From IMG/VR virus record IMGVR_UViG_3300028364_000013: DNA of 64,000 nucleotides, one strand, 5' to 3'. Origin of the DNA: a virus (taxonomy: Duplodnaviria > Caudoviricetes). A program made the position numbers and the translations under genes. Under the pieces are notes generated by a model, which saw only the letters and a program-made list of their open reading frames with translations, was not told the origin of the DNA and searched no databases. Below, piece after piece: positions 994-62,446 of this stretch (positions are counted from its first letter, which is position 1; every line of letters starts with the position of its first letter).

Positions 994-1022
994 TAGAACA
1001 TTTTATAATAATAATCGTATAA
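994..1022 (+). promoter_or_regulatory. class B ECF-like promoter
   Basis: TAGAAC-N16-CGTATAA; ATG of next gene 5 nt after. Confidence 0.7.
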
Positions 1023-1027
1023 AGAAT

Positions 1028-1366
1028 ATGGAAACAGCAAACACAGGAACTGGCTCAGAAACGCTAAGCCAAGAAGAAAAAATTGAAATATTAAAAGCAA
1101 TGTTCTCAACTCTTGAAGTTGATAATAAAGCTGTCTTTACTCAATGGTGTCACGAGGAAATCGAAAGAGGAACTGGAGCGCTGCTTGGAGAGAAGATGAC
1201 AAAGATGAACGAGCAAATGAATTCATTCGTTGCAAAAGCTTATGATAAAGTCGTTAAGGCTGGAACAGAAGTTTACGATAGAACAAATGAAGCGTTTAAG
1301 TTTGCAAATGAAGAAGAAATTGAAAAGTCTCCAAACTCAAGCAGCAGCAAGGGTATTTGGGACTAA
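1028..1366 (+). CDS. hypothetical protein
   Basis: ORF; apparently leaderless from pB. Confidence 0.8.
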   Translation: METANTGTGSETLSQEEKIEILKAMFSTLEVDNKAVFTQWCHEEIERGTGALLGEKMTKMNEQMNSFVAKAYDKVVKAGTEVYDRTNEAFKFANEEEIEKSPNSSSSKGIWD

Positions 1367-1441
1367 AGATATATAACGTCTGTATCTAAGGATGGTCATC
1401 TATGCGTCTCGCAATTGACATCTTTATTTATTGGTTCAAAG

Positions 1442-1469
1442 AAAAAGCCTCCAGCAATGGGGGCTTTTT
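1442..1469. terminator. bidirectional intrinsic terminator
   Basis: AAAAAGCCTCC-AGCAAT-GGGGGCTTTTT between convergent genes. Confidence 0.8.
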
Positions 1470-1474
1470 CGATT

Positions 1475-2260
1475 TTAAGAATAATAAGAGCCGTAAACTT
1501 CAGAATTTAAACCATAATCAATAATCACAACCCTTTCTATTCCACCCTCTTTAACGACACCGTAGGAGCTAAGTCTTGTTAAATCCCCTGCAGGTATTCC
1601 AAAATTTCCTATGTACTGAAATATTCCATACACAAACTCGTCTTCCCACATCTCTTCTACAACAGCTTTATCAATATCTTGCTTATACGAACTTCTGTCA
1701 CCAATCCCATTCGCATCTTCTCCATAATTGTGAATAGCTACAGCAAAATCTCTAAAATCAAATCCAGTAATTTTTTTAAAATCAGCCACTTTAAGCTTTT
1801 GGGCCAATTCCATTTCGGTCCACAAGCTATTTGGGTCATAGTCATAAATTGTAGCCAAAACATCATCTAAGCCTTCTTTTGCAAAGTCAATCTCAACCTG
1901 GTTTTGAGCAATACCTTTTTTGTTCTTAGCAAGCTTTAAAACTTTCTCATCATCAATTTTATATACAATTCTTGACGAACCAGAAGAAATCCTTTGAAGA
2001 AATGCTTCACAATATCTAATTCTCTCTGCAAACGTTGTAAGAGTCTTAAACTCCTCTATCTTAAACATTTCAGGATAACCCTCTTCCAAAGAATCTTCTT
2101 TCACCATGGTTCCAAATTTGTGCTGCCCAGTCGTAGGATAGCTCCTCATCTGTGGGTTGAACTGTGGGTCAAAAAAGTCTGGAAAGTCTTTGTAGTCACT
2201 ATAGACAACAGCTTCAAAAACCTTTTTAAGTTCTTCTTGTATTATTTTTTTTATATTCAT
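1475..2260 (-). CDS. protein kinase-like fold protein
   Basis: SSGSSRIVY Gly-loop, VLK lysine, GDL..S.YG catalytic-like loop, IIDYG (DFG-like). Confidence 0.7.
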   Translation of the reverse strand: MNIKKIIQEELKKVFEAVVYSDYKDFPDFFDPQFNPQMRSYPTTGQHKFGTMVKEDSLEEGYPEMFKIEEFKTLTTFAERIRYCEAFLQRISSGSSRIVYKIDDEKVLKLAKNKKGIAQNQVEIDFAKEGLDDVLATIYDYDPNSLWTEMELAQKLKVADFKKITGFDFRDFAVAIHNYGEDANGIGDRSSYKQDIDKAVVEEMWEDEFVYGIFQYIGNFGIPAGDLTRLSSYGVVKEGGIERVVIIDYGLNSEVYGSYYS

Positions 2261-2342
2261 TGTTCGTTAAACCAGTTATAGTCATCGTAGTCTTCTTCAG
2301 GCTCCATCTATTTTTGTGTTGTCTTAATAAATAGTTTTTATT

Positions 2343-2374
2343 TTTGGAAATTTTTTCATTTATTCGTACCTTCG
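2343..2374 (+). promoter_or_regulatory. Bacteroidota housekeeping-sigma promoter
   Basis: TTTG-N20-TACCTTCG. Confidence 0.6.
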
Positions 2375-2379
2375 CTGCA

Positions 2380-2571
2380 ATGAAAACAAGAGCAAGAAAA
2401 ATGAAGTGGGATAAAGCGGGGGAGCAATTGCATAAAATTTTAACAGAAAGACTTAAGGACCCTAAGTTTGCTAATACAGCTTTTGTAAAAAGAGGTTTGT
2501 GGATGACAAGGCAAAGTCTTATCTTTTCTATTGAGGAGAAAAATAAATACATCTTAAAAAAATATTGCTAA
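2380..2571 (+). CDS. hypothetical protein, C-terminal KYC tag family
   Basis: ORF ends YILKKYC. Confidence 0.7.
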   Translation: MKTRARKMKWDKAGEQLHKILTERLKDPKFANTAFVKRGLWMTRQSLIFSIEEKNKYILKKYC

Positions 2572-2765
2572 TGTTAGAAGAAGACAAAATAAGAAGACTT
2601 CCAGAACATCTCAGAAACAAGAAATTTGTTCACTTGTCATCTAAAGACTTGCGCATAATAGTAAACAACGGGCTTTCAGATTATCAAGTAAATTATTTGA
2701 TTAAAGGGTATGAAAGAAATTACCACGAAATGTTTAGAGAAATTTTTATAAAACATTGCATATGA
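2571..2765 (+). CDS. hypothetical protein, C-terminal KHC tag family
   Basis: TAATG coupling; ends IFIKHCI. Confidence 0.7.
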   Translation: MLEEDKIRRLPEHLRNKKFVHLSSKDLRIIVNNGLSDYQVNYLIKGYERNYHEMFREIFIKHCI

Positions 2766-2992
2766 AAAAGAAGCACAGAAATATAACGATAGATGGGGGC
2801 GACTTATGGGCGTGGTCAGTAATAAGAGGCTATCAAGGAGTTTCAACTATTAAAATATGGAAGGATAAAAAACTTAAGTATGAAAAAAGATATATTTCAG
2901 AACCTGAGTGGGTTAATCCTCCGACTGGAATGCCAACTGTAACTCCAGGGTTAATTTCCAGGTTCATTAAAATACATTTGGTAAATAAATAA
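2762..2992 (+). CDS. hypothetical protein
   Basis: ORF overlapping the upstream stop. Confidence 0.7.
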   Translation: MKKKHRNITIDGGDLWAWSVIRGYQGVSTIKIWKDKKLKYEKRYISEPEWVNPPTGMPTVTPGLISRFIKIHLVNK

Positions 2993-3012
2993 ATTTTAAC
3001 TAAATTTGAGCA

Positions 3013-3238
3013 GTGAAAAAAGCAACACAATTAATGCAAATATTGTCATACGAGCACACCAAGCCCTTGTCGGAGAAGTATGCAAAAAGTTGTGCTCCAG
3101 GTTGCCACAATGGAAGAAAGAATCAAAATAATGATGAGCTTCGGAATGGTTGACAAAGCAGATGAGGCCAATAAATTGTTAATGGAGCTTTTGGTAGCAA
3201 TTAGAGAAGAGTTTATTAACGAACAAAATGGCGAGTAA
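3013..3238 (+). CDS. hypothetical protein, apparent frameshift at A5 run 3084-3088
   Basis: adding one A joins GTG start to a helical C-terminal ORF. Confidence 0.5.
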
Positions 3239-3240
3239 AT

Positions 3241-3537
3241 ATGAGCGAAGATAAAGACGTTGTATACGGAATACATCAAGGCTGCATCTACGAAGGTGGA
3301 GGAGTCAACAAAAACCTCTTCAAAGATAAAGAAGCTGCAGTTGCTGAAGCGACAAGGATTTTTGAAATGGAGATAGCTCGCCAAGAAGAATATAGAAAAC
3401 TTGAAGTAGAAGATGAAGACCATGAAGTTATGTTAAGGCACTATGAAGAGTTTAAGTGGAGAAAATGTGACAAGAGAGAAAATAGATGGCACAACACTGT
3501 TGATGAAATACAAGTTGTAGATTTTACAATTCAATAA
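3241..3537 (+). CDS. hypothetical acidic protein
   Basis: ORF. Confidence 0.75.
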   Translation: MSEDKDVVYGIHQGCIYEGGGVNKNLFKDKEAAVAEATRIFEMEIARQEEYRKLEVEDEDHEVMLRHYEEFKWRKCDKRENRWHNTVDEIQVVDFTIQ

Positions 3538-3538
3538 T

Positions 3539-3868
3539 ATGAACTGGGAAGAACACTTAGAGTAGCTCAACTCCTCAAGCATTGAAGAACTTGATGTTGA
3601 GATTGAAAAAATCATAGAGGAACAAAACGAAGCCGCCAAGACAGCTATGAATCAAATTCACTTCACTCTTAGGCTTGCGAAGACAAAGGAGGAAATACTA
3701 AAGACGGTTGAAGAAATTGAATTAGATTACCACAATACGTCCATGCATTCAATAACTCCTTGGAGACTTAAGAATAGAAAAGAAAAATATAACGAAGACC
3801 CAGAGGTATATGAAAAAGAGTGGAACGAACTCCAGGAATTTGCTGAAAAACTAAGAAAAGAAGCTTGA
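3539..3868 (+). CDS. hypothetical protein with in-frame TAG at 3563-3565
   Basis: ATG 3539 in frame with ORF 3647-3868; one internal TAG. Confidence 0.6.
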
Positions 3869-4071
3869 TATGGTTTATAAAATTGCCTCAATATTTTTTT
3901 TATGTAATCGGAATCGTTGTAATGTTTATTCCAATGATGACTGGAAGGCCAGACTTAAAATACACACTTGTACCTGCAGGTTTTGTTGTGTCAATTATAG
4001 GTCGATTATTAATGGGGTGGGAAAAAGAAAAAGTTAGCAACAAAGATATACTTGATGATGGAGAATTTTGA
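3865..4071 (+). CDS. hypothetical membrane protein
   Basis: two hydrophobic segments. Confidence 0.7.
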   Translation: MIWFIKLPQYFFYVIGIVVMFIPMMTGRPDLKYTLVPAGFVVSIIGRLLMGWEKEKVSNKDILDDGEF

Positions 4072-4114
4072 CTTATAAAAATTTAAGAAATACGTTAACA
4101 CTTATGATGGCCAG

Positions 4115-4366
4115 ATGGGTCACAAGAAATATAGCGTGAAAACAATCATAGACGATTTCCTTTATGGAATAGGTATCTGCTTGGACGAAGAAGGGTTTGA
4201 GAATGCTGACGGATATAGAAAATTTAAAGAAAAACTAATGGAGCACCTGGACGCAGTTCCAGCTTCAGAAGTTCCAAAGAAATGTTATTGCGGACAACCC
4301 GTTGATACAACTAACCAAGATTGCGTTGACTATAACTTATGTTCAGACCACGTAATGGACTCATAA
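4115..4366 (+). CDS. hypothetical protein, C-terminal Cys/His cluster
   Basis: CYCG...C...LCSDH. Confidence 0.7.
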   Translation: MGHKKYSVKTIIDDFLYGIGICLDEEGFENADGYRKFKEKLMEHLDAVPASEVPKKCYCGQPVDTTNQDCVDYNLCSDHVMDS

Positions 4367-4380
4367 AAAAATAAATAATT

Positions 4381-4848
4381 ATGTATATTGATAAAATAGA
4401 AGACATCCCAAGTGATGTAATGGTAGTTCTTAAGAAAGTGTTTGCAGAATACTTTCAAGAGGAAGAAGGTGAGGGCGAAGAAATGACTATCGAGGAGGTA
4501 GTAGAATGCCTAAGAGAAAGTTATGATGACTATGACGAGACTACAGGCTCGTGCTATATCACATGCACATACCACACTACAATAGATGGTTTTAGATTTG
4601 AAGTTGATGGGAGTTCTTACAGAAAAGACCAATCTGTCTGTGATGAAGAAATGGGTGATGGATTTTCAGTAGTCTCTCTTGATGAAGAAAAGAAGAAGAA
4701 AGAGAAGGCTAAAAACGCTAAGAGAGCAAAGTCTGATGAGAACTGGAGAGAGTTCTTTGTTAAAATTGATGGCTATATAACTCCAGAGAAAGCTTTTGAG
4801 CTTTTAAAAGATTATAAGTTTCCAACCAAGTGGAAACAAACAGCTTAG
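4381..4848 (+). CDS. hypothetical protein
   Basis: ORF. Confidence 0.8.
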   Translation: MYIDKIEDIPSDVMVVLKKVFAEYFQEEEGEGEEMTIEEVVECLRESYDDYDETTGSCYITCTYHTTIDGFRFEVDGSSYRKDQSVCDEEMGDGFSVVSLDEEKKKKEKAKNAKRAKSDENWREFFVKIDGYITPEKAFELLKDYKFPTKWKQTA

Positions 4849-4858
4849 TCGAGATAAA

Positions 4859-4887
4859 TAGAACACTTTCTTTTATTTATCGTATAA
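4859..4887 (+). promoter_or_regulatory. class B ECF-like promoter
   Basis: TAGAAC-N16-CGTATAA. Confidence 0.7.
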
Positions 4888-4894
4888 CCTAAGT

Positions 4895-5197
4895 ATGGAA
4901 GCTACTAAAGAATCAGTAATCGAATTTTTGAGAAAAGAATATGAAGAAAGTGTCCTTCAGCATTTAGTTGAAGAGGCAATCTATAATTATCTTGATGAAG
5001 ATTGGGAAGACGAGTATGAAGACGAGCAAGATGCTTATCGAGAAACTGGTCGTGGAGAAGCTGAGTCTGAAGTAAGCACTGACATTCAAAACGAAATCCT
5101 TAAGCAACTTGGGTTTACTCACGAACAATACTGTGAAGTTATTGGCCAAGACGTTTGGGATACAGTCACAGAAGTTTACGAATTTTTAGAACACTAA
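4895..5197 (+). CDS. hypothetical acidic protein
   Basis: ORF after pB. Confidence 0.8.
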   Translation: MEATKESVIEFLRKEYEESVLQHLVEEAIYNYLDEDWEDEYEDEQDAYRETGRGEAESEVSTDIQNEILKQLGFTHEQYCEVIGQDVWDTVTEVYEFLEH

Positions 5198-5199
5198 AC

Positions 5200-5649
5200 A
5201 TGAAAGATAACGTTAAAGACGCAATCGAAGAATACCAGTGCCCAGGATGCATGGCTGGAAGCGACATTACATGCTTCAAGAAAGATGACGAAGGATTAAG
5301 TTCAGCTTGTGGAAATCACAGAGCTGGAACTGCAGCAGTTGGCATAGGTAAGTTTTTTCTTGGAATGCCGAAAGGATTCAATAGACTTGGAGCAGGATTT
5401 GGCGGAGACAAAAATCTTAGAATTGATATGTTCGAAACTTATGATGATAGCTGGGCAAAAAATGATGATGCAGGTTATAAGAAGTGGAACATCCCAGTGT
5501 GGAAGTACAAAAACAAGAATGGACACACCATGTTAAGAGGTTTGTCTCCAAGAAACAACAGCTCTTTCTTGCATGTAATTCTTGAGGATTGCATGGATAA
5601 ATTTGATTGTCTTGAGATTACTCAAGATGATGTAGATGGAATGGATTAA
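5200..5649 (+). CDS. hypothetical Cys-containing protein
   Basis: ORF from ATG 5200. Confidence 0.8.
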   Translation: MKDNVKDAIEEYQCPGCMAGSDITCFKKDDEGLSSACGNHRAGTAAVGIGKFFLGMPKGFNRLGAGFGGDKNLRIDMFETYDDSWAKNDDAGYKKWNIPVWKYKNKNGHTMLRGLSPRNNSSFLHVILEDCMDKFDCLEITQDDVDGMD

Positions 5650-5651
5650 TT

Positions 5652-5981
5652 ATGAAGCACTTTAGCGGAAAAGAACTTGAACCAAGTAAGTTTTACCAAA
5701 TGGGCGACTTCATTGTAGAATTCATTAAGGACACTGGTGAATTGATAGAATCCTATCCAGGAAAGTTTTCTGGCGTTTATCTATGCAAGTTAACTAACTT
5801 CACAAATAGTTCTAAACACAACTTAGGAGAATTAGAACGTGAAATGAAACTGGTGAAAAATCAAAACTACCCGTGTTTTCAAGAAATAAGCAAAGAAGAT
5901 ATTCAAAAATATATTGACTCTAAAGAAAGAGGCATTAAGTTAGAGCAGGAAAGAATTTGTTTTTTAAAGAAATTTCTATAA
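5652..5981 (+). CDS. hypothetical protein
   Basis: ORF. Confidence 0.75.
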   Translation: MKHFSGKELEPSKFYQMGDFIVEFIKDTGELIESYPGKFSGVYLCKLTNFTNSSKHNLGELEREMKLVKNQNYPCFQEISKEDIQKYIDSKERGIKLEQERICFLKKFL

Positions 5982-6132
5982 AAAAATAATACAATTTTTT
6001 CATCGCACAGTCATTGCCGACAGGCGGATTCCGACAAAATTTTTTCACCATTAATTAAATTTAAAAATATTCTAATTAAATTTCTTCTTATTTATTGTAT
6101 ATTTATTATTAAGACTTATAATAAGCAAATAG

Positions 6133-6342
6133 ATGAGCAAGGAAGATGCGTGTTTTATCCACAACGGAGAAATATACTACATAGTTGGAGCAGCCGAACG
6201 AGATATTGAGAGGTACCTCGAAAATATTGTTGACTTTTATGAGACTGACGAATATCAATCGCTCAATCTAATAAGAATAAAGGCTCAAAAATACCTTATA
6301 GATAGACAAATTCAGCTAATAATGAGCAAATATTGCATTTAA
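6133..6342 (+). CDS. hypothetical protein, C-terminal KYC tag family
   Basis: ends QLIMSKYCI. Confidence 0.7.
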   Translation: MSKEDACFIHNGEIYYIVGAAERDIERYLENIVDFYETDEYQSLNLIRIKAQKYLIDRQIQLIMSKYCI

Positions 6343-6344
6343 AA

Positions 6345-6376
6345 TTTGCAAGGGTTAAAAAGTTTCTATAGATTTG
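6345..6376 (+). promoter_or_regulatory. Bacteroidota housekeeping-sigma promoter
   Basis: TTTG-N20-TAGATTTG. Confidence 0.75.
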
Positions 6377-6406
6377 TAGTCTAATTTAATTACAAAACAA
6401 AAATTT

Positions 6407-7162
6407 ATGGAAACGAAAAATGATACTGCACAAGATGCAGCATTCGCAAAGATGTCCGACATTAAAATCTGGATTTCTACACAGTATGAAAAGTTCGTAC
6501 TAAGCGAATTCAACAGAGACCCGTCTCACTACAAAAAAGTTAAAGAGTCAATCGAAGCAAACGATTATACTCAATATCAACCAATCCTTGTTAACAAGCA
6601 AATGGAGATTGTCGATGGACAAAACAGATACCTTGCATGTAAAGAGCTTGGCCTTCCAATTCATTTCATCGTATCAGAAGATATTCATATCTATGCTGCT
6701 GCAGACATCAACAGAGCTGCTAAGAACTGGAACGCTATGGATTATGCTCGTCACTATGCTAAGAGAGGGAAAGACTCTTACATCATGCTTTTAGACCTTT
6801 GTGCTAAATACGACCAGAGAATTTCTGTAGTTGGTGCATTCGGTAAAATCTCAAAGAACGCACGTTCTCACTCACACAACATTAAACAAGGTTCTTTCGA
6901 ATTTAGAGAAGACATCGACATTGACGATTTCTTTACTCACATGGCTATCTTCGAAAATTACTATGATTTCGCTAAGAAAGAAAAGTTTGTTAAGGCAATG
7001 CTTAAACTTTATATGCACCCTAACTATGTTCATGAGAAAATGACTACCAAGCTTAAACTTAACTCAGGTATCGTTCGTGAACAATCTAAAGTTGGAGACA
7101 TGGTCAATGAGCTTGTTAAGCTATACAACTTCCACACAAGAACTGGTAAAATACACTTCTAA
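6407..7162 (+). CDS. ParB/sulfiredoxin-like N-terminal domain protein
   Basis: PILVNKQMEIVDGQNRYLACKELGLP motif. Confidence 0.75.
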   Translation: METKNDTAQDAAFAKMSDIKIWISTQYEKFVLSEFNRDPSHYKKVKESIEANDYTQYQPILVNKQMEIVDGQNRYLACKELGLPIHFIVSEDIHIYAAADINRAAKNWNAMDYARHYAKRGKDSYIMLLDLCAKYDQRISVVGAFGKISKNARSHSHNIKQGSFEFREDIDIDDFFTHMAIFENYYDFAKKEKFVKAMLKLYMHPNYVHEKMTTKLKLNSGIVREQSKVGDMVNELVKLYNFHTRTGKIHF

Positions 7163-7415: not shown

Positions 7416-7416
7416 G

Positions 7417-13369: not shown

Positions 13370-13397
13370 TAGAACATTAATTTTTATTTGCGTATAA
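13370..13397 (+). promoter_or_regulatory. class B ECF-like promoter at left island edge
   Basis: TAGAAC-N15-16-CGTATAA, back-to-back with a minus-strand pA. Confidence 0.65.
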
Positions 13398-13491
13398 GAA
13401 AGTAAGCGAACTTTCTAAGGTAGAAATTTGATTTTGTAACTTTTTAAAAACATATCGTTATAAGTATGTAACCAATAATAAAACAAACATT

Positions 13492-14061
13492 ATGAAAAAT
13501 TTAGTAAGAATTACAAGAGACCAAGCAGTAACAATGTTCACTAACTACAAAAAAGAAGTTTCGGCTTCGGGTGTAGCATTTTCAAACATTGCATACTTAG
13601 TAGACGAGTCAAAGTCTAAAACTGTAAAAGGTAAGAAAGTTTTACAGAAAATGGTTGAAACGAACGCAACAATAGGGAGTGATTATGCAAAGAAAGTTAA
13701 CAAAATTCTTGACAGAGAGGGAAAGGAAATTGTTTTTGAAGCGCAACCAATGAGAGGTAAAGATTATGTTTCAGAAGGAAACCCAGTGTGTATGGACACA
13801 AAGACACAAGAAAAAAGATACTTAGTATTCATTGTTGAAGGACATTCAAAGCCACAAACACAATTGATTTTAGATGGAAAGTTAGTTGACCGTAAAGATG
13901 TTTGGAATGATACTTACATTACACCTGCGGGATTGAAACCAAATGCAGTTGCAGGACGTGGAACGATTAACGAAGAAAATAACTTCTTTTTCAGAACGCT
14001 TGACTTTAACAACTTAATTTCTTTCAATATGAATGGTAATATGTACCTAATTGAGGGATAA
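13492..14061 (+). CDS. hypothetical protein
   Basis: ORF after pA. Confidence 0.85.
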   Translation: MKNLVRITRDQAVTMFTNYKKEVSASGVAFSNIAYLVDESKSKTVKGKKVLQKMVETNATIGSDYAKKVNKILDREGKEIVFEAQPMRGKDYVSEGNPVCMDTKTQEKRYLVFIVEGHSKPQTQLILDGKLVDRKDVWNDTYITPAGLKPNAVAGRGTINEENNFFFRTLDFNNLISFNMNGNMYLIEG

Positions 14062-37159: not shown

Positions 37160-37233
37160 CACTCCGTATCGGATTCAAACCGATGGTCTTCTCATAGAAA
37201 GTGAGACGTGTTGGGTCGCTACACTAACGGAGC
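37160..37233 (-). tRNA. tRNA-Glu(TTC), atypical
   Basis: cloverleaf; anticodon loop CTTTCTA (U37), T loop TTTGAAT, D loop lacks GG. Confidence 0.8.
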
Positions 37234-37597: not shown

Positions 37598-37626
37598 TTA
37601 TACGCAAATATAAGAATAAAGTTCTA
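37598..37626 (-). promoter_or_regulatory. class B promoter driving the tRNA cluster
   Basis: TAGAAC-N16-CGTATAA on minus strand. Confidence 0.7.
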
Positions 37627-48721: not shown

Positions 48722-49695
48722 AGCCAGGCCAAAACATAATTAAACAAATAGAAGACGGGAATTTCAATTTAAGTTCGCATCCAGTTTTTAGTCATAATCC
48801 AAAAAGATTAATGGATATTGGTTTTAATAAATCTCTTGAGTTAATTAAAAGAAGAGTTGGAGACCACAATCTCTCCCCAGTATATTTATTTAATTTATAT
48901 AAAACGTATCAATTTAAAATAGATATTATTGAGAGTAGCATTAAATCAGAGCTTGAACAAATAGCGGAAGATACAATTAGAGAAATGTATGATGTACCAG
49001 AAGATATAAATATTAAACCAAAGATTGTTAATCAAGATGATATTGAATATGATTTTGACTCTGAAAATGAAAAAATAGAAGTCTCCCCAGAAAGACTAAG
49101 ATTAATAAAAGAAGAAGCAAATAAAAGAATAATACTAAATTCTATTGTTCATGGTTCATCTGTTATGATTTGGTCAAGCGCATATTATATTGTAAAAGAA
49201 AAACTTGATGAATTAAATAATAAATTAATTGAACTATATGATATTTATTCTGCAGTTGTTAGTTATTTACTTTGGCTTCAGGAACCAAGTCAAGATTTGT
49301 CTGGAGTAGAAAAACAAGGAGTTTGTGAAATTGATTTTGAAGATGGATTAAGTTGTGAAGGAATAAATTTTCCAGTACTTTTATTGGAGACAAATAAAGT
49401 GGTGATTGATTATCTTATTTGTAAAGGTATACCAACCGATTTTAGTGAAGAAGAGTTAAAATTATATTATGCTCTTTCAGATGATTATAATCAAGAAATT
49501 TGGCATAATACATTGTCTCCAGTTATATATTCTGATTTTTTAGAAACAATAGAAATAGAATCAAATAAATTACCTGATGTAATATCAAAATTATCTCAAC
49601 TAAATTATGAAGAATTAAAAACTGTGTTCATATCTATACAACAAGATTCAAAAGAATCAGGAAAAATAGAACTTTTAAAATTTAAAATCGTATAA
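48718..49695 (+). CDS. hypothetical protein
   Basis: 325 aa ORF; stop is the TAA of a class B promoter. Confidence 0.85.
   Translation: MKPGQNIIKQIEDGNFNLSSHPVFSHNPKRLMDIGFNKSLELIKRRVGDHNLSPVYLFNLYKTYQFKIDIIESSIKSELEQIAEDTIREMYDVPEDINIKPKIVNQDDIEYDFDSENEKIEVSPERLRLIKEEANKRIILNSIVHGSSVMIWSSAYYIVKEKLDELNNKLIELYDIYSAVVSYLLWLQEPSQDLSGVEKQGVCEIDFEDGLSCEGINFPVLLLETNKVVIDYLICKGIPTDFSEEELKLYYALSDDYNQEIWHNTLSPVIYSDFLETIEIESNKLPDVISKLSQLNYEELKTVFISIQQDSKESGKIELLKFKIV
49667..49695 (+). promoter_or_regulatory. class B promoter upstream of the RadA-like/sigma region
   Basis: TAGAAC-N16-CGTATAA. Confidence 0.65.
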
Positions 49696-49848: not shown

Positions 49849-49899
49849 ATAATACAGACTGTAACTTTTTAAATATTAATCGTTATAAACATAATAGTC

Positions 49900-50116: not shown

Positions 50117-51025
50117 ATGAAAACGAAAAGAACATATGATGAAGTTGAGATTATTAATACTCCGTCTATTAAGACAGGGATTAAAACTCTTGACCTGTTC
50201 CTTTCTAACAATGGAGGGTTCGAACTTGGAAACCTGATTCTTATGACAGGAACTTCAGGTGCAGGTAAGACAACTCTTTGCAAACTGATTCAAAGAGAAA
50301 TTAAAAAACCAACATTATTTCACGCCTTAGAAAGTTTAGCGTCTTCAGTTAAGAGACAAACTCTTAGAATTAAAACACATTCCAACTGTTTTATTACTGA
50401 CGGGAAAGATTACCAAGACTTTGATGAGTTCATGGATTTCATTTATAGAGATAAGCCAAGATTTGTTATGGTTGATTCACTTCAACACGCTGTGAAACAA
50501 CTTAGGAAAAAAGGCATGGGAAAAGATGAGGCTTACCACCACGTACTGGACTCTTTATACAGATGGAAAGATGAGACGCAAGGAATTGTAATTCTTATTT
50601 GTCAGTTGAATAAAGACAACACGTTTTCAGGACCGTCAGGAATGTTGTTCGATGCGGATGTTCAGGTACACTTAGAGTACAACTCTAAAACAGGAGTTAG
50701 AACAATGGATACGAAGAAAAATAGAATGGGTCAACTGGACTCGATTTATTATGAGTTCTCTTCAGGAGTTGAGGTGATGAAGTTCTACACTCAAGAAGAA
50801 TGGGATGTAATTAAAATGGGTGTCACTTTGCCAGAGATGTTAATGAACATCATCTTCCAGTATTCAAACGCCTACAGGAACCACGATTCGTATTCTGTAT
50901 TTAAGAAAGAATTCAACAAGAAGATTAAGGTGATTTATAATTCTATTGATGATGACCTTGAGATTTGTTTATCAGTTACAAAACTGATGAGTGAATTAAC
51001 TAAAAAGTATTTTGTAACTTTTTAA
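50117..51025 (+). CDS. RadA/Sms-like RecA-family ATPase
   Basis: Walker A GTSGAGKTT, Walker B VMVDSLQ, SGP....DADVQVHL, KNR. Confidence 0.8.
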   Translation: MKTKRTYDEVEIINTPSIKTGIKTLDLFLSNNGGFELGNLILMTGTSGAGKTTLCKLIQREIKKPTLFHALESLASSVKRQTLRIKTHSNCFITDGKDYQDFDEFMDFIYRDKPRFVMVDSLQHAVKQLRKKGMGKDEAYHHVLDSLYRWKDETQGIVILICQLNKDNTFSGPSGMLFDADVQVHLEYNSKTGVRTMDTKKNRMGQLDSIYYEFSSGVEVMKFYTQEEWDVIKMGVTLPEMLMNIIFQYSNAYRNHDSYSVFKKEFNKKIKVIYNSIDDDLEICLSVTKLMSELTKKYFVTF

Positions 51026-51069
51026 ATAACCATCGTTATACATACACGAACCAATAAATAGAGAGAGAT

Positions 51070-51711
51070 ATGACAAACGTAAAGAAAGATTCAGAACAAG
51101 CTACTAAAGATAAAGCAAACGTAGCAGTGCTTCAAGATATTAATGCCACAGCAAGAGCAAAAGATGATGCTTTTAGTAAGCTGTATGGTAGACACAACCA
51201 ACAAGTCCGCATTCACTTCCTCAAGAGATTGAGAGATACAGATGTTGCTGAGGATTTGCTTATGATAACTTTTGTAAAGGCGCATGAGAACATTAACACT
51301 TATGACCCAAAAGTGGGTGCATTTTCTACTTGGTTGTACAAGATTGCAAACAACTCTTTGATTGACTTGTTGAGAAAAGCAAAGTTCGAAGTTCTTTCTT
51401 TGGATTCGCTTCAAAGTAAGACGTCAGACGACAATGATGGAATGGAATTTCAATTAGATTCAGATACTCCAAACCCATTGCAAATTCTTGTTCATGATGA
51501 GGTAACAAAACAAGTTTCTGATGCAGTTAATTCTATTAAGTCCAAAAAAGTTCGTGAATTAATGATTTGCAGATACATTGATGAAATGAGTTTTGAAGAA
51601 ACGGCAAAGGCTCTTGGTCTTGAATTGAATTCAACACTTAGAACAGCTGTTGCAAGAGGTAAAGAGATTCTTAAAAAGAAATTAGCTAACCTTGAAAATA
51701 ATGTCTCATAA
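51070..51711 (+). CDS. RNA polymerase ECF sigma factor (sigma70 group 4, SigW/RpoE-like)
   Basis: region 2 VAEDLL...FSTWLYKIANNSLIDLLRK; region 4 RYIDEMSFEETAKALG...RGKEILKKKL; lacks regions 1.1 and 3. Confidence 0.92.
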   Translation: MTNVKKDSEQATKDKANVAVLQDINATARAKDDAFSKLYGRHNQQVRIHFLKRLRDTDVAEDLLMITFVKAHENINTYDPKVGAFSTWLYKIANNSLIDLLRKAKFEVLSLDSLQSKTSDDNDGMEFQLDSDTPNPLQILVHDEVTKQVSDAVNSIKSKKVRELMICRYIDEMSFEETAKALGLELNSTLRTAVARGKEILKKKLANLENNVS

Positions 51712-51942
51712 CATAAAACCAACGGTCTTATGACCGACCCCATACTACTGGGATGTGATAGTGTAGTGACTATTGTCTGGAAGTAGTGTTATGATAAAAA
51801 GCTATTAGTTCGGTGAATGAAGCAAAGCGTTAGCGCCAATAGTTTAAGTGCCCCGTGGTTATGATACACCACGGGGTTTTTTGTGCGTTGCCCCGAACGA
51901 GCGCAGCGTTGTAACTTTTTAAATATCCATCGTTATACAAAT

Positions 51943-52105: not shown

Positions 52106-52134
52106 TAGAACATTTTAAAATCTCTTACGTATAA
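52106..52134 (+). promoter_or_regulatory. class B ECF-like promoter
   Basis: TAGAAC-N16-CGTATAA. Confidence 0.7.
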
Positions 52135-52280
52135 GATAATGAAAGAACAAATAGATTTATATTTTTTACACTTTGTAACATTTTGTAACATTTTGTAACT
52201 TTTTAAATCTATGTCGTTATACAGTCATAACCAATGACCGCAGGGCAAGACCTGCTTTGCAGTCGCAAAAAACAATTATT

Positions 52281-54288: not shown

Positions 54289-54317
54289 TAGAACATTCTA
54301 AATTTATAAACGTATAA
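54289..54317 (+). promoter_or_regulatory. class B ECF-like promoter
   Basis: TAGAAC-N16-CGTATAA. Confidence 0.7.
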
Positions 54318-54321
54318 GATA

Positions 54322-54455
54322 ATGTAGGCTGAAAGATACCTACATTCTAACGAGATTTCCTTTTGGAAGTTTTAGTTGTCTATCCTGAAGGTGGAATATC
54401 CTGACGGAATTGTCTCTTATCAGAAAAGCTCGGTTTTGTCACCGAGCTTTTCGCT
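54322..54455 (+). ncRNA. candidate pB-driven sRNA
   Basis: no ORF; ATGTAGG/CCTACAT hairpin; AAAAGCTCGG/CCGAGCTTTT terminator. Confidence 0.45.
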
Positions 54456-54554
54456 TTTATAGTAAGTTGCTTCGTTACGAACAACGAAGTTGCAAGCAAA
54501 GCGGAAAATGAATTTATTCATTGTAACTTTTTAAATTCCTGTCGTTATACAATC

Positions 54555-56339: not shown

Positions 56340-56361
56340 CTTACATAAAAATTAATTAGAG

Positions 56362-56598
56362 ATGAGACTTACAGTACACGTATCAGGCGCAAAGAAAGAC
56401 ACGCACGAAAAGAAGACCAAAGAAGGAATTGTTAATGTTAAAAAAACATTTAACACTCTATCGTTCTCAAGTGTGAACCCAGAAGATGTTGGAAGCATCC
56501 TAAACAAGATTAAAGCTGAAGGGCTTGGAGAGCCTACCAAGCATTACCTCTCTAACGAGAAGATTCCTGGTCACGCCAGAGGGAAAAGAAAAGCCTAA
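56362..56598 (+). CDS. small basic protein
   Basis: ORF after host-type promoter. Confidence 0.75.
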   Translation: MRLTVHVSGAKKDTHEKKTKEGIVNVKKTFNTLSFSSVNPEDVGSILNKIKAEGLGEPTKHYLSNEKIPGHARGKRKA

Positions 56599-56712
56599 AC
56601 CCTGAACACAAATATATGAAAACCTTCAGCTATGCTGGGGGTTTTTTTTTGTCCAGTCGGGACTGGTCAAATTCAGATTTGTAACTTTTTAAAAACACAT
56701 CGTTATACAAAT

Positions 56713-56780
56713 GTCGATGCGAACAGCGAGACGGGTCTGGTCACCGAGGTGAACCGAAAGAGTAGACTCCAGCCTGCCTT
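56713..56780 (+). ncRNA. candidate sRNA, GAGTAGACTCCA family (copy E)
   Basis: own pA; hairpin GGTCAC-CGAG-GTG-A-ACC replaces the copy B hairpin. Confidence 0.6.
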
Positions 56781-56865
56781 ATATTTTCTTGCCAACCATT
56801 TTGTAAGCGAATCGGAAAAAGATTTTATTCTTTGTAACTTTTTAAATTCTTATCGTTATACAAGT

Positions 56866-56937
56866 GTAGACAATGAGAGACACATCTACTACCCCAGAAC
56901 TGAAAAACTTATGGCAGGGTTAATCCACTCCTGCCCC
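56866..56937 (+). ncRNA. candidate sRNA, AATCCAC-CCTGCC subfamily (copy G)
   Basis: own pA; GGCAGG-GTTAATCCACT-CCTGCC stem-loop. Confidence 0.5.
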
Positions 56938-57039
56938 AAACTTTTTTGCCCAATTTATTATTTGAGCCTGCTCCATCGAGCACGCAGTGCTTATGCAGAA
57001 TCATTCTTAATAAGCATCATTTAAAAAGTTACAATTTTA

Positions 57040-57068
57040 TAGAACATTTGTTGATAACTTACGTATAA
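57040..57068 (+). promoter_or_regulatory. class B promoter at right island edge
   Basis: TAGAAC-N16-CGTATAA next to a degenerate minus-strand pA. Confidence 0.7.
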
Positions 57069-57446
57069 GATAATACTAAGTAACTAACGAAAAAACACAT
57101 TATGAAAAATTACTGACATATAGAAATCTCCAAAACTTTTTAAGCAAACACCGACCATGCTCTGAACTCGTTTCTTAGCTCTTCTACGCACGCCATGCTT
57201 AGTGGTCCAATATGCGCTTAAGAATCCTAAAGATTTCTTAGATTATTTCCCATAATTTCTATGACAGTATTTTGCACCTTCGGATGCAAGACTAAATAGG
57301 ACGACCCAGAGCTCGACTTGCTTCTTGCACTCAAGCTTTGGTATAGTCCTATTTTTTAGAAATTTAGGTGATGCACATGTACGAACAATTTCAATATCGC
57401 CTAAATTTTGGAAATTTGGATGGTTGAGAAAATTCAGTACTATGGT

Positions 57447-57620
57447 GTGGGGAAATGTGGGATGTGCAGCACCGAATATTAAACTACCTCTTTTCGATGT
57501 TTTTAATACCTAACTATCTGATTATTAGAAAAAATAGTTATTAACATTACCAACCTTTCCCTAAATGCACCCCCTAAATTTCCATTTTTTAGGCTATTAT
57601 TTTATCCCACATTTCCCCAC
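57447..57620. repeat. 17-bp perfect inverted repeat in non-coding region
   Basis: GTGGGGAAATGTGGGAT (57447-57463) / ATCCCACATTTCCCCAC (57604-57620). Confidence 0.85.
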
Positions 57621-58018
57621 CCTCCACCACATAAAATTGCACCCTCTCCCGCTCCCTCCCAGCTCTCCCCAGAATCGACCTCAAATATTACCCACTTCTC
57701 CCTGATTTTATACCCCTAATATAAGCTGCTGGTTGGGGATAAAACTATGCCAATCCAGAGACAAAATCCCCTTATCTCCCCAGAGATATTACCCAGGTCA
57801 TCGTGACATATTTACACCCCTCCCCTTGCTCACTCTGACGTTTCACAACTCTCCCTATGCAAATTGTTATAAATTTAGAAAATGCCTATACAATACATCT
57901 ATTTAATGTTTCTATTTAATCGTGATGCTCTGGGTACAATCTGCTCCTGCAGAATCAAAATATCCCTATACAAAAAAAGGAGAACTGCTTTCACAACTCT
58001 CCCTATTAATAACGCAAA

Positions 58019-58131
58019 TTATAATGACAGGACTCGAACCTGCAGCTAACTGAACCATTCAGTCGGATGGAGTCGAACCATCACTTCCTCTACCAGTAGG
58101 GTAGGTCGGATACCAATTTCGACACATTACA
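58019..58131 (-). ncRNA. tRNA-like RNA with two TPsiC-type arms
   Basis: TGTAATG/CATTATA acceptor, D arm with TGGTA, GATGG-TTCGACT-CCATC and GCAGG-TTCGAGT-CCTGT. Confidence 0.6.
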
Positions 58132-58134
58132 ATA

Positions 58135-58563
58135 TTACATTAATCTTCTATCAATATATTTACCTCCAGACCAAATCTCTACCTTGTTACTATCTTTAAT
58201 TAATTTAATTTCAGTTTCTCCTTCTGAAAAAAGAAATTTAACTAATGATTCTAAATCGTTTGGTTTAATTTGTTCTGGCTTTAGTTCATCTACCACAGAT
58301 ACTTGTACTGAATTTAAAAACCATTCCCAGCGTTCCTTTACAAAGCCTTTTGCTTCTTCTAAGGATTCAAATGACTCGCTTTCATTTGCTGTATCATTTT
58401 GCATGGTTGGAAAGTGGCAAGTAACAAAAAAAGCGACCTCACCTTTAACTTCCAATCTGGTTATCCAGGCAATCCTAATATTATTGTAAGATGCTGTTCT
58501 TGCCCACCTACCCATTTTATCTGGTTGGTCTGTGCTGCTGTATCTATTCGAGTATTCAATCAT
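58135..58563 (-). CDS. hypothetical protein
   Basis: ORF from MIEYSNRY. Confidence 0.75.
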   Translation of the reverse strand: MIEYSNRYSSTDQPDKMGRWARTASYNNIRIAWITRLEVKGEVAFFVTCHFPTMQNDTANESESFESLEEAKGFVKERWEWFLNSVQVSVVDELKPEQIKPNDLESLVKFLFSEGETEIKLIKDSNKVEIWSGGKYIDRRLM

Positions 58564-58909
58564 TTTTTTTAAGTTTGCACCATAGTTGACCACTCTTGTC
58601 TCTTGTGGTATTAATTTGTTCAACGTACCCTCTATCTCTATATGGAGATTCCTTAGAGAAAGGAATGGTTGAAATTGTTTCCATCTCAAACTCTATTGGA
58701 AAATATTTTTTAGATTGTTCTAAATACATAGGAATGTCTTTGTCTACGAAGAATGTAGATGCTACTATGTTATTAACTTGCGGGCTTTTAACATAATCAG
58801 CATCGCCAGAATGATATATTTTATTCGTAAAAGAATCGTGGTAATACCCTTTTATATCAGCAATTTCATCAACTACAACTGTTCCTTGTGGTAATTTAAT
58901 TCTTTTCAT
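58556..58909 (-). CDS. hypothetical protein
   Basis: ORF. Confidence 0.75.
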   Translation of the reverse strand: MKRIKLPQGTVVVDEIADIKGYYHDSFTNKIYHSGDADYVKSPQVNNIVASTFFVDKDIPMYLEQSKKYFPIEFEMETISTIPFSKESPYRDRGYVEQINTTRDKSGQLWCKLKKND

Positions 58910-58952
58910 TGTTCTTTTTATTAAAAATAAATAAATTTGGAATTCACCTTTA

Positions 58953-59402
58953 CTACGCTTTAATCTTATCTATGATTTCGTTAGCCAATTCAAGCTGTGT
59001 TTTTGCGTGGTCAAAGATTTCCTTTGTAATAACTTCTGCTCCATACAATTCATCTGCAGACATATTATCATTACAATCTCTAAGAGCATTCTTTATGTTT
59101 GAGAACTGAACTTTCTCTCCTATGACATCATAGAGTTGTTCCCATTCAGTATCCATGCTTCCAGGCTTAATGCTATCAATTCTAATGTAGTCAACATCAA
59201 GTCCGAATGTGGCATCCTCATCTCTCACTTTTATATATACACCAGTGAAGTCGCTGCATACTTTATCATCATTGCTTAGTTTAGCCTTACGCTCTGCCTC
59301 AAGCTCTTTACCAAACTTATCGACAAGTTGTGCCACTGTAATAGATTTAATGTCTTCAGGGGCATCTTTAAGCATTCTCCATATTCTTGACTTATTTTTC
59401 AT
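58953..59402 (-). CDS. hypothetical protein
   Basis: ORF. Confidence 0.8.
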   Translation of the reverse strand: MKNKSRIWRMLKDAPEDIKSITVAQLVDKFGKELEAERKAKLSNDDKVCSDFTGVYIKVRDEDATFGLDVDYIRIDSIKPGSMDTEWEQLYDVIGEKVQFSNIKNALRDCNDNMSADELYGAEVITKEIFDHAKTQLELANEIIDKIKA

Positions 59403-59403
59403 C

Positions 59404-59790
59404 TTATAATTTTTTAAAAGAAGACAGTGCGCTTTCTAAGTCAGCATCAAACTGTTCCTTTGTTCTTGTGTAGTAATCTTCCTCCAGTAGCATTCTACTT
59501 ATTTCTGCAGCCTTACTTTTTTCTTCTCTATTAATATGGTTTTCAATCATACTAACTCTTACATTAAACCTTTCAACTATGCACTCCATGCTTTGATAAA
59601 CACAAGTAACTTCAAGTTCATATACATCTCCTTTTTTATTGTATTGATTGCCTTCCCACGTAACAAAAGTTGGAACTATTCTAATAGCTCTTCTAACTCC
59701 TGTCTGAAAACAATAGAATGGTTTTTCTGGAATGAATATTTCAGTTTCTTCTACTGGAACTTTCTCGTATTCGTATGTAGTTATCTTCAT
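59404..59790 (-). CDS. hypothetical protein
   Basis: ORF. Confidence 0.8.
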   Translation of the reverse strand: MKITTYEYEKVPVEETEIFIPEKPFYCFQTGVRRAIRIVPTFVTWEGNQYNKKGDVYELEVTCVYQSMECIVERFNVRVSMIENHINREEKSKAAEISRMLLEEDYYTRTKEQFDADLESALSSFKKL

Positions 59791-59796
59791 GTCTTC

Positions 59797-60231
59797 TTAT
59801 GAATTTTGTTTAAAGATTTCTGCAGACATTACAATAGAGCAATCTTCTTGAATTCCTTTTACTATAGCATCAATTGATTTCTTAAATCCTTGAATATCTA
59901 CTTCACCGTTTTGGTCTAAGTAATTTTTCAAAAACAATTTACATTCAAGAGAATTAATCATTGACGTATCTATTTCTGATATATGAACAGTTTCAACAGT
60001 ATGGTCATGTATATTATTTTTTTCAAGTGTATAGATACCACACCCATCTGACTCAAAGCCTTTATTTCTAAGTGACTTTTGAACTCCTGCAGCAGCGCTA
60101 TACTTAGATGGTGGGTCAACAGTTACTTCAATAGAGTATAGACTATCCTTAACTCTAACTCCACCTTGTTCAATACCCATAGAGTATTCGTCCTCAATAG
60201 TTTCTAATAGTGTTCTAAAATCTTCAAACAT
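59797..60231 (-). CDS. hypothetical protein
   Basis: ORF after pB. Confidence 0.8.
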   Translation of the reverse strand: MFEDFRTLLETIEDEYSMGIEQGGVRVKDSLYSIEVTVDPPSKYSAAAGVQKSLRNKGFESDGCGIYTLEKNNIHDHTVETVHISEIDTSMINSLECKLFLKNYLDQNGEVDIQGFKKSIDAIVKGIQEDCSIVMSAEIFKQNS

Positions 60232-60251
60232 AGTTAATTATTTATAATCTA

Positions 60252-60280
60252 TTATACGCAAGAAATTTAGAAATGTTCTA
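60252..60280 (-). promoter_or_regulatory. class B ECF-like promoter
   Basis: identical 30-mer to the 62418 copy. Confidence 0.75.
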
Positions 60281-60303
60281 AAATTTATCTTATAAAAGTT
60301 TAA

Positions 60304-61383
60304 TTAGTATTTAAGCTTCACCACTTTGGATACAATATCATTCCAGATTAATTCAGCTTCTTTACGCCTTGTCCTATGCGTGTTGCAATTAAAACACTGA
60401 CTCTCTTTACCAGATAGAAATTCGTAGCTAACACTTTTTGTGTATCCTGTCGTAATGAATTCTTCGAATCTAAGTTCTATCTTATCCTGGATGCCTTGGT
60501 CTAACAGAAATTTAAAAGTTTTCTGTATCATCTCAGATTTAGACTTAGATTTTCCATCTCTCATTTTACCAAGTTCTTCCAGTGGATTATTAGATACGAA
60601 ATAATAGAAAGGAGTGTTTCTAACACCTTTAATATACACTCCGAATACAGCGTGCATATTTTTATTCCAAATGTCTATAGAGGGTTCGAAATCACTTTGT
60701 ACAGAAATCTTATCTCTAAGTATAGAAATTTCCTCTGACATTTCAATAACATCTCTACCAAAGCTCATAATCTTCTGGTTCTTTTTATCAATTTCGCATT
60801 GCAATTTTTTCTCTTTATCAATGAGCCTTCCTATTCTCTTAGAGATTCTTCCTATCTCCTTATAACCTTCTTTAATCATTTTTTCGAACTTCATCTCACT
60901 ATCGTTAAGTCTTTGTTCTATTGAGCGTATTTTTAAATTGGTATAGTCATACTCTTCTTTAACAAGATGTAAGTCTATATGACTATCGTAGTCCTTAAAT
61001 TTAACTCCAGTCATCTCTAACTTTCCATACTGGTTTTCAATAAGGTGATTTACTTTTTCAAAGTCAAATTCTTTTGTAAGATGTTTTTTGGATAAACCCA
61101 GTTTATTGGATGGAATAGAGGAATTATATTTTGGCTTGAACTTACCTATGAAATATGCCTCCAAGTTATTTAGGTGGATGTTGTCTTCAACTATTATGTA
61201 AGCTACTCCATCAAAAGTTTTATCATTGTGCCCGCCAAAAGACCTTGATATTACGTTAAGGGATTGTCCAACGTAAACAACTCTATTATCGTGTACGAGA
61301 AAGTATATACCAGAGCCTCCACTAATATTAGAATCCTTAGATGATGAAATAACATCCTTATGATTTACTTTTGTTATTGCCAT
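60304..61383 (-). CDS. GIY-YIG nuclease domain plus coiled-coil protein
   Basis: SGIYFL....VVYVGQS....R....H...LE..FI.KFKPKYN. Confidence 0.75.
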   Translation of the reverse strand: MAITKVNHKDVISSSKDSNISGGSGIYFLVHDNRVVYVGQSLNVISRSFGGHNDKTFDGVAYIIVEDNIHLNNLEAYFIGKFKPKYNSSIPSNKLGLSKKHLTKEFDFEKVNHLIENQYGKLEMTGVKFKDYDSHIDLHLVKEEYDYTNLKIRSIEQRLNDSEMKFEKMIKEGYKEIGRISKRIGRLIDKEKKLQCEIDKKNQKIMSFGRDVIEMSEEISILRDKISVQSDFEPSIDIWNKNMHAVFGVYIKGVRNTPFYYFVSNNPLEELGKMRDGKSKSKSEMIQKTFKFLLDQGIQDKIELRFEEFITTGYTKSVSYEFLSGKESQCFNCNTHRTRRKEAELIWNDIVSKVVKLKY

Positions 61384-62411
61384 GCCTTATTATAAATTTC
61401 ACAATTATGAATTGCCATAACCACATCTCTCATAGAATAGAATCTATATCTACTGCTTCCTCCATCATTGTCATAATCATATTCAGCATTAGGATTTTCT
61501 TCAGCACAAGTTTCTTGTGGGTGGGCTACATAATCTTTCTTAGCGTAATGTTCTTTTAATTCTGACACTGGATAGTATTTCATACTAAACAAAGCGTAGG
61601 CATCAGAGTAATCTGCTGGACAAATTGCATACTTTACTTCCCCATTGTTATCAGATAGATAAATTACTTTAAACTTTGGATTTATGTTTTCACTGGATAC
61701 TGTCAGTTTTTTATCTGCCTTATCAATAATATTTTGAAGTCTTGTCTCTATTGTTATAAAGTCAATCACTTTAATTTCATCTACGAAAAAGTTTCTTGGA
61801 TAGTCACTATTAGATTTTGTGTATCCGCTTATGTGCAATGCTTCAACTTTACCTGCACCAACAAAGTTTATAGGATATATAACTCTTTCGCTTCCTTTGT
61901 ATGTTATGTTAATATAAGAGTTTTCATCTATGGCTTTTTGAATTGAATCAATTGTATTTTTTACTTGCTTTGTTATTATGAATTCTCTTACTGGAGCTTT
62001 TGGTTTTGGCTTGGGTTTAATTATTTCTTCAAAAGCCTTGCATGCATCAATTGTATTTTTAATTTCTTTTCTTGATTGCTCCAGCAGTATTGTTAATTTG
62101 TCACGTTTCTTGTTTACAATATATTCATCTACCTCTTTAGTTTTATCAAAAGCCTGTTCAAGCATTTCTTGAAGTTTACAGTTCTCTCTGTAGTTAAAAT
62201 CTTTTATAAGGATTGACTGCTCCTTTAGGAGTGTTTTAAGTTTGCTACAGTTTTCTTCGAGGTGTGACAAGAAGTAATCTTCACTATGGGAACAACTATA
62301 CTTATTTGCATATGTTTCTTTACCAGTTCTCTTATACATTAGATTATCGAACATCGTTATTTTGGAACGTGTTCCATTGTATATTTTAAAGAAATAATTG
62401 CTTAAATTCAT
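61374..62411 (-). CDS. WYL-domain protein
   Basis: AIDENSYINITY...RVIYP.......EA.......RNFFVDEI. Confidence 0.65.
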   Translation of the reverse strand: MNLSNYFFKIYNGTRSKITMFDNLMYKRTGKETYANKYSCSHSEDYFLSHLEENCSKLKTLLKEQSILIKDFNYRENCKLQEMLEQAFDKTKEVDEYIVNKKRDKLTILLEQSRKEIKNTIDACKAFEEIIKPKPKPKAPVREFIITKQVKNTIDSIQKAIDENSYINITYKGSERVIYPINFVGAGKVEALHISGYTKSNSDYPRNFFVDEIKVIDFITIETRLQNIIDKADKKLTVSSENINPKFKVIYLSDNNGEVKYAICPADYSDAYALFSMKYYPVSELKEHYAKKDYVAHPQETCAEENPNAEYDYDNDGGSSRYRFYSMRDVVMAIHNCEIYNKAWQ

Positions 62412-62417
62412 ATATTA

Positions 62418-62446
62418 TTATACGCAAGAAATTTAGAAATGTTCTA
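62418..62446 (-). promoter_or_regulatory. class B ECF-like promoter
   Basis: TAGAAC-N16-CGTATAA. Confidence 0.75.

Follow-up and report, generated by a model that had tools for sequence, protein, structure and literature searches.

Class B sites and the class A island

We analysed a 64,000-nucleotide stretch of viral DNA (the window) from the Caudoviricetes record IMGVR_UViG_3300028364_000013, in which a recurring bipartite motif, TAGAAC-N16-CGTATAA (class B), resembles promoters of the extracytoplasmic function (ECF) type. The window also carries an array of a second ECF-type promoter class (class A) and a gene for an ECF-type sigma factor (51070-51711, plus strand; hereafter sigma 51070) that is preceded by both classes. 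It is the reverse complement of G000:C1:32279-96278, where G000 denotes the IMG/VR virus record of 142,155 bp (CheckV completeness 65%); five mismatches fall in bases 1-17 and the remaining 63,983 bases are identical. The GC content is ~35%. A 364-kb contig also encodes a protein identical to the window's sigma factor, and the phage genome is therefore probably much larger than the 142-kb record (~364 kb). The nearest cultured relatives, by one shared protein of 717 amino acids (aa; 46-54% identity), are the Cellulophaga phages phi4:1 and phi17:2, in which neither the sigma gene nor the class B motif was found. This one-protein kinship, together with TTG..TAnnTTTG promoters and sigma homologues from the FCB group (Ignavibacteria, Zixibacteria, Bacteroidota), makes a host in the Bacteroidota likely.

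The exact class B motif occurs nine times in the window, compared with 0 matches in 100 shuffles. An earlier note on this DNA had listed ten copies; nine are exact (994, 4859, 49667, 52106, 54289 and 57040 on the plus strand; 37598, 60252 and 62418 on the minus strand), and the tenth is a real site at 13370-13397 whose spacer is 15 nucleotides (nt) rather than 16. The copies at 60252 and 62418 share an identical 31-mer, where that note had given a 30-mer. The genome-wide scan that it proposed, applied to the 142-kb record, returned 19 exact matches and none to a reversed control pattern. When the -35 element was relaxed (T[A/G][G/A]AAC; TGAAAC, TAAAAC and TTAAAC allowed), the record yielded 26 sites, 25 with a 16-nt spacer and one with 15 nt; a relaxed match at 37226 falls within a tRNA gene and was discarded as spurious. 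The class B consensus reads aaaTAGAACATTt..CGTATAA, or (a/t)aaT[A/G][G/A]AACATTT-N-CGTATAA with AAC-N16-CGT. Information content across the 26 sites peaks in two blocks, with AAC and CGTATA present in 26 of 26. The spacing lies within the 16 ± 1 nt of SigW-type promoters, and the resemblance to that type, pointed out in the earlier note, extends to the -35 AAC, the -10 CGTA and the 16-nt spacer, all of which agree with the SigW consensus TGAAACTTT / CGTATA.

All 26 class B sites are intergenic or overlap an upstream stop codon, and each is aimed at the next gene, tRNA block or RNA on its own strand. Outside the island at 13-57 kb, class B is the main recognisable promoter. Genes headed by class B include those for a PARP-like ADP-ribosyltransferase, a NAPRTase, a CCA-adding enzyme, a peptide deformylase and a PNK-like ATPase. 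The first of these, outside the window (G000:C1:27020-28297, plus strand), belongs to an operon with a class B promoter at its head, and its 425-aa product contains a PARP catalytic domain (E 5e-25); the NAPRTase gene (G000:107334-108599) stands behind a site of the TGAAAC type. Two sites outside the window (G000 reverse-complement equivalents 70108 and 87273) overlap a terminator, the hairpin loop of which contains the -35 element while its T-run serves as the spacer. Bacteroidota housekeeping promoters combine a -33 TTG with a -7 TAnnTTTG, and the latter is missing from class B sites. The record contains 12 host-type TTG..TAnnTTTG sites away from class B, which are intergenic, co-oriented and followed by a gene start within 200 nt. 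A scan of IMG/VR with TAGAACAT-N14-CGTATAA gave single matches only, at chance level.

Roughly one-third of class B spacers share the sequence ATT(T)CTAAATTTA(G/T)AA, in part the perfect palindrome TTCTAAATTTAGAA (for example at 54295-54310, at 60258-60273 on the minus strand and at the G000 reverse-complement equivalent 65740). The spacer of the small-RNA promoter described below is kept in relatives. The shared spacer could be an operator or a DNA-bending tract.

Class A has the form TTGTAACTTTTT..TCGTTATAC, with the consensus TTGTAACTTTTTAAA..TCGTTATAcA and AAC-N15-CGT. Its 74 copies all lie within 13026-56858, just upstream of most of the small genes there, and define the island. Class B sites 13370 and 57040 flank this span, bearing out the earlier placement of class B at both island edges, and four more class B sites (37598 on the minus strand, 49667, 52106 and 54289) lie inside it.

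Wiring of the sigma operon and its conservation

The sigma gene (51070..51711, plus strand) encodes 213 aa with matches to Sigma70_r2 (PF04542, 54 bits), weakly to Sigma70_r4_2 (PF08281), and to TIGR02937 (80.9 bits against a cut-off of 42.9). It thus has the sigma-2 and sigma-4 domains only, above the family cut-off, as is characteristic of ECF (group 4) sigma factors. The operon begins with the class B promoter at 49667..49695 (plus strand), the TAA of which is the stop codon of an upstream 325-aa open reading frame (ORF), a conserved neighbour of sigma that had no match in the ESM Atlas. A class A promoter at 49861..49885 follows, before a 69-aa ORF and a gene for a KaiC/RadA-like ATPase; a second class A promoter, at 51014..51038, lies 32 nt upstream of the sigma start codon. 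The first strong intrinsic terminator downstream of 49667 on the same strand is at 51850..51877 and ends the operon. No strong terminator was found between 49667 and the end of the sigma gene, and both classes can therefore drive sigma, wired in series. The placement of a class B site at the sigma region, put forward in the earlier note, thus holds, with 49667 lying 1.4 kb upstream of the gene. At least one of the two classes must have a reader that is already present ahead of the synthesis of this sigma.

To assess conservation, we compared 11 syntenic metagenome loci, giving 12 sigma orthologues together with that of this phage. The orthologues on metagenome contigs share 44-94% identity; in IMG/VR, no sigma relative was found other than in the phage's own record. 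The lineage-specific class A variant lies no more than ~80 nt upstream of the sigma start in 12 of 12 orthologues, and the class A array always encloses the sigma gene. In eight lineages, a class B site precedes sigma by 0.45-1.4 kb, the 49667 site being conserved at the matching position, and no class B site was found upstream of sigma in L053 and L055.

Each of the 11 loci has a class A-like array, the sequence of which differs by lineage. This phage has a -35 of TGTAAC and a -10 of CGTTATAC. The same -35 is paired with CGCTATA in L043, L045 and L051 and with CGTTATAG in L053 and L054, and L055 has TGTAACC with TGTTATAC. The other arrays combine TGTAACTTTTACCT with TCGTTATG (L041 and L048), TGTCAC with CGTTATA (L047), CCGAC with TCGTTAT (L050), TGTGAT with TGTTAGAG (L049) and TGTAACATTT with TGATATAC (L052). 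Class B, as (T)GAAAC/TAGAAC-N16-CGTATA, is present unchanged in all 11 loci, often at matching positions upstream of the sigma operon, the DUF932 gene and the small RNA. It is very likely that the two classes have different readers, because a sigma factor that had drifted to TGTGAT..TGTTAGAG, as in L049, would hardly still read TGAAAC..CGTATAA.

These observations suggest that classes A and B probably form a transcription cascade meeting at the sigma operon. The earlier note had proposed such a cascade; the position of both classes ahead of the sigma operon fits it, but no sigma gene for a second reader was detected in the 142 kb. The distinct host-type, class A and class B promoters support part of its further proposal, that at least three sigma specificities would divide the window in time. 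Profile searches of the record with PF04542, PF08281 and PF04545, following its call for further sigma genes, recovered the 51070 gene only. A weak region-4 match at G000:117359-118213 is a GIY-YIG/NUMOD homing endonuclease and not a second sigma. Proteins behind host-type promoters (6407-7162, 468-992 and G000:12399-13040) showed no sigma likeness in profile comparison.

Predicted start sites, probable leaderless messages and a small RNA

Two independent features bear on where class B transcripts begin. At 10 of the 26 sites, an ATG lies 6-10 nt after CGTAT (12-16 nt after the C of CGT; binomial P ~6e-5), and nine of these ten open ORFs of 48-385 aa. At 54289, the 5' hairpin of a small RNA starts 14 nt after the C of CGT, within the range of start-codon distances. 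Because the two distances agree, the predicted start is most likely 13-14 nt after the C, which would place CGT at about -13 to -11, as for ECF promoters, and would make many class B messages leaderless. Class B sites are thus very probably transcription starts, many of them with leaderless mRNA. The fixed promoter-ATG distance also suggests that leaderless messages are translated, in a phylum where Shine-Dalgarno sequences are little used.

The leaderless geometry can be seen at 994..1022 (plus strand), where the ATG of a 112-aa ORF (1028-1366) follows the C of CGTATAA by 13 nt. The corresponding distance is 15 nt at 4859..4887 (plus strand; 100-aa ORF, 4895-5197) and 14 nt at 62418..62446 (minus strand; 345-aa ORF, 62411-61374). 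The site that shares its 31-mer with the last of these, 60252..60280 (minus strand), precedes a 144-aa ORF (60231-59797) and the genes that follow it. The genes behind 60252 and 62418 had been described as WYL/GIY-YIG, but searches of Pfam and PHROGs found neither domain in them; the sole GIY-YIG protein found is the homing endonuclease mentioned above, outside the window.

At the left island edge, the site with a 15-nt spacer (13370..13397, plus strand) stands in tandem upstream of a class A promoter (13436) and a gene at 13492-14061. A similar tandem is found at 52106..52134 (plus strand), a site conserved in relatives, which precedes class A 52195 and the DUF932 gene and stands directly before a 19-codon ORF (52139-52198, plus strand) that starts 12 nt after the C of its -10 element. 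The N-terminal motif M-x-E-x-I-D/N-L-Y of this ORF is conserved in relatives, where the start position is ATG, TTG or ATT. The site at 37598..37626 (minus strand) precedes a block of tRNA-Met, tRNA-Glu and tRNA-Glu (37569-37159) running antisense to the island, in agreement with the earlier report of class B ahead of the tRNA cluster. At the right island edge, 57040..57068 (plus strand) is followed by ~1 kb without a credible ORF. The DNA downstream of it (57070-58010) includes a markedly C-rich stretch (~57560-57850) amid AT-rich DNA. A 113-nt tRNA-like element at 58019-58131 (minus strand) scores 28.7 bits against the Rfam tRNA model (gathering score 29) and received no ARAGORN call.

The class B promoter at 54289..54317 (plus strand) would drive a conserved small RNA of ~140 nt (54324..54460), made up of the 5' hairpin, a conserved core and a terminator hairpin (54423-54452). 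Compensatory changes occur in 10 of its 31 predicted pairs across six lineages, the core is almost invariant, and no Rfam family matches it.

We also observed a leader motif, (G/A)(T/A)AACCAATAAA, ~6-18 nt downstream of the -10 element in most non-leaderless class A units and in some class B units, for instance at 13460-13490, 51040-51069 and the G000 reverse-complement equivalents -45270 and 72760. It is present in relatives too and may be a translation or RNA-stability signal.

Candidate readers of the two classes

We favour, at a probability of about 0.5, the reading in which sigma 51070 recognises class A and class B is recognised by a second, conserved sigma factor encoded outside the 142-kb record. 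By the usual autoregulation criterion for ECF sigma factors, that a sigma's own promoter lies upstream of its own gene, the class A promoter in 12 of 12 orthologues would support this assignment, although the more distant class B site of eight lineages is a candidate too. Variation within regions 2 and 4, which are invariant elsewhere, is greatest in the -10 specificity loop (residues 79-84) and at the equivalent of sigmaE F175. The role of the loop is set out in PMC6648896; PMC1540707 covers that of F175, together with R171 and R176 of sigmaE, which contact C-31 and G-35. Bacterial relatives with a conserved promoter keep the loop and the F175-equivalent constant. Class B is the conserved, genome-wide class of this phage and very probably a genuine promoter class, used by bacterial RNA polymerase together with a sigma of the ECF type. 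Under this model, sigma 51070 and class A would be a private pair with positive feedback that changes from lineage to lineage. The class B reader would be a second, slowly evolving sigma in the remainder of the ~364-kb genome; an ECF sigma of the host is less likely. Class B would prime sigma expression, giving the order B, then sigma, then A.

Several observations weigh against this assignment. The closest bacterial sigmas, those of the FCB group (32-38% identity), have TGAAAC-N16/17-CGTA(T) upstream of their own gene in ~20 of 80 cases, which is the class B consensus and not that of class A. The best named NCBIfam model for sigma 51070 is SigW, with a score below its cut-off. The R171 and R176 equivalents are almost invariant, which fits an unchanging -35 such as that of class B, and class A varies at -31 (L049), -33 (L047) and -35 (L050). 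That class A variants follow the sigma lineages may reflect shared descent only. The searches for a second sigma in the 142 kb found none, and no clean residue-to-base code emerged across the sigma orthologues and class A variants. Candidate residue-base pairs (His at residue 100, Lys at loop residue 81 and K198 to M/Q) failed with more lineages or were not listed base contacts. Among distant sigma homologues (no more than 35% identity), no repeated bipartite motif was found; one such homologue, P0038, sits on a bacterial contig.

A possible but doubtful alternative reverses the assignments, such that sigma 51070 reads class B as a middle-gene sigma, 49667 is its autoregulatory promoter and the order is A, then sigma, then B. 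The reader of class A, which heads ~100 small early-type genes, would in that case be a different, rapidly evolving factor, such as a sigma that is divergent or delivered with the virion. The bacterial upstream motif, the SigW model with its published consensus and the near-invariant arginines all speak for this arrangement, as do the invariant region 2.4 motif FSTWLYKIA, constant like class B while class A changes at contacted bases, and the class B site upstream of the sigma operon in eight lineages. An island of many tiny genes, each with a promoter and with sigma among them, is also the classical early-gene layout. Such a layout, in which tiny early genes have their own promoters and a sigma gene stands among them, is established for SPO1 (gp28) and T4. 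Against the reversed order, no candidate class A reader was found in the 142 kb, and L053 and L055 lack class B upstream of sigma, where class A is universal. The specificity loop and F175-equivalent vary strongly while class B stays constant, and the region 4.2 helix reads STLRTAVARGK, compared with GTVKARIFRAR in the bacterial family whose upstream motif is TGAAAC.

A related and rather unlikely proposal is that class B copies the consensus of a conserved envelope-stress ECF sigma, and that its reader is present when infection starts, as the host's own sigma (released by stress) or one delivered with the virion. If so, a pre-existing class B reader would start the programme and switch on a private, fast-evolving sigma and the class A island, in a two-tier ECF cascade with one tier fixed by a conserved reader and the other free to drift. 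A host ECF sigma as this reader is not favoured, because 86 Bacteroidota genomes, two of them excepted, showed no enrichment of the class B consensus and no such promoter was seen upstream of Bacteroidota sigma orthologues. In five Crocinitomicaceae genomes, GAAAC-N16-CGTATA gave 2 matches compared with 7 for the control, and in 81 genomes of the same class it was again rarer than the control (roughly 100 versus 250, by hand count). In these Bacteroidota members of the sigma family, the sigma gene stands behind another gene. Two of the 81 genomes were exceptions, G057 (11 versus 6 control matches) and G011 (5 versus 1). The 11 sites of G057, a genome that shares its GTDB class with the Crocinitomicaceae genome G001, have AT-rich spacers and are spread over many contigs; they may belong to a host ECF regulon that uses the class B consensus. 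The G057 site nearest a sigma homologue drives other genes.

It is improbable that sigma 51070 alone serves both classes, recognising them as stronger and weaker or near-cognate versions of one site, with no cascade. Both share AAC-N18-TATA with CG(T) just upstream of TATA and differ in flanking bases only, and B. subtilis ECF sigmas with similar -10 elements overlap in recognition (PMC5758882). Yet in L049, class A (TGTGAT..TGTTAGAG) stands beside class B (TGAAAC..CGTATAA), the class A -35 of L050 is CCGAC, and the classes differ consistently in -35 flanks and genome location. It is most improbable that class B sites, instead of acting as promoters, are bound by another DNA-binding protein or are relics of a mobile cassette: the near-palindrome TTCTAAATTTAGAA in several spacers could bind a dimer and two copies share their 31-mer, but the bipartite motif keeps a strict 16-nt gap while the sequence of the spacer varies, its strand is always that of the gene behind it, the distance to start codons and to the 5' hairpin of the RNA is fixed, and sites are kept at matching positions in lineages whose sigma is only 44-75% identical.

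Returning to the favoured assignment of class A to sigma 51070, the arrangement can be set beside known systems. Phage sigma cascades include that of SPO1, in which gp28 is followed by gp33/34, and the early, middle and late programme of T4. This phage likewise has several promoter classes, a phage sigma gene behind a promoter of another class and small genes with their own promoters. It differs in that both of its phage-specific classes are of the ECF type, one sigma gene is found in the 142-kb record, and one class changes between close relatives while the other is constant; the temporal order proposed here is a prediction.

The sigma-W promoters of Bacillus subtilis, TGAAAC(TTT)-N16-CGTA(TA) (PMC5758882; bioRxiv 10.1101/2021.05.28.446236), share with class B the AAC core of the -35, the -10 CGTATA, the 16-nt AAC-CGT spacing and a T-rich tract just after the -35, and 4 of the 26 class B sites are exactly TGAAAC. 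Most class B sites, however, have TAGAAC, with the G one position later, are carried by a phage with a Bacteroidota-type host, and in many cases abut a start codon. The phage sigma has no apparent anti-sigma gene next to it. Sigma gp36 of coliphage phiEco32, which is reported to work with the phage co-factor gp79, directs host core RNA polymerase to phage-specific promoters (PMC12276001), as is predicted for the sigma of this phage. Sigma 51070 differs in that it is clearly ECF by TIGR02937 and in that a second ECF-type promoter class is present beside it. The closest cellular relatives of the phage sigma are the FCB-group ECF sigmas with the FSTWLYKIA motif, from which it differs in its region 4.2 recognition helix and variable specificity loop. 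A literature search found no paper on the transcription programme of large Bacteroidota phages or on their ECF-type promoter classes.

Sigma cascades and ECF-type promoters are thus known in themselves; what appears to be new here is the pairing of an unchanging class with a lineage-specific one, together with leaderless geometry, in a Bacteroidota-type phage. Two ECF-type classes in one genome, joined at a single sigma operon, provide a clear and testable model of a sigma cascade. The phage and its relatives also offer a natural set of sigma/promoter pairs that may not cross-react, which would be useful for studying the evolution of ECF specificity and for synthetic biology.

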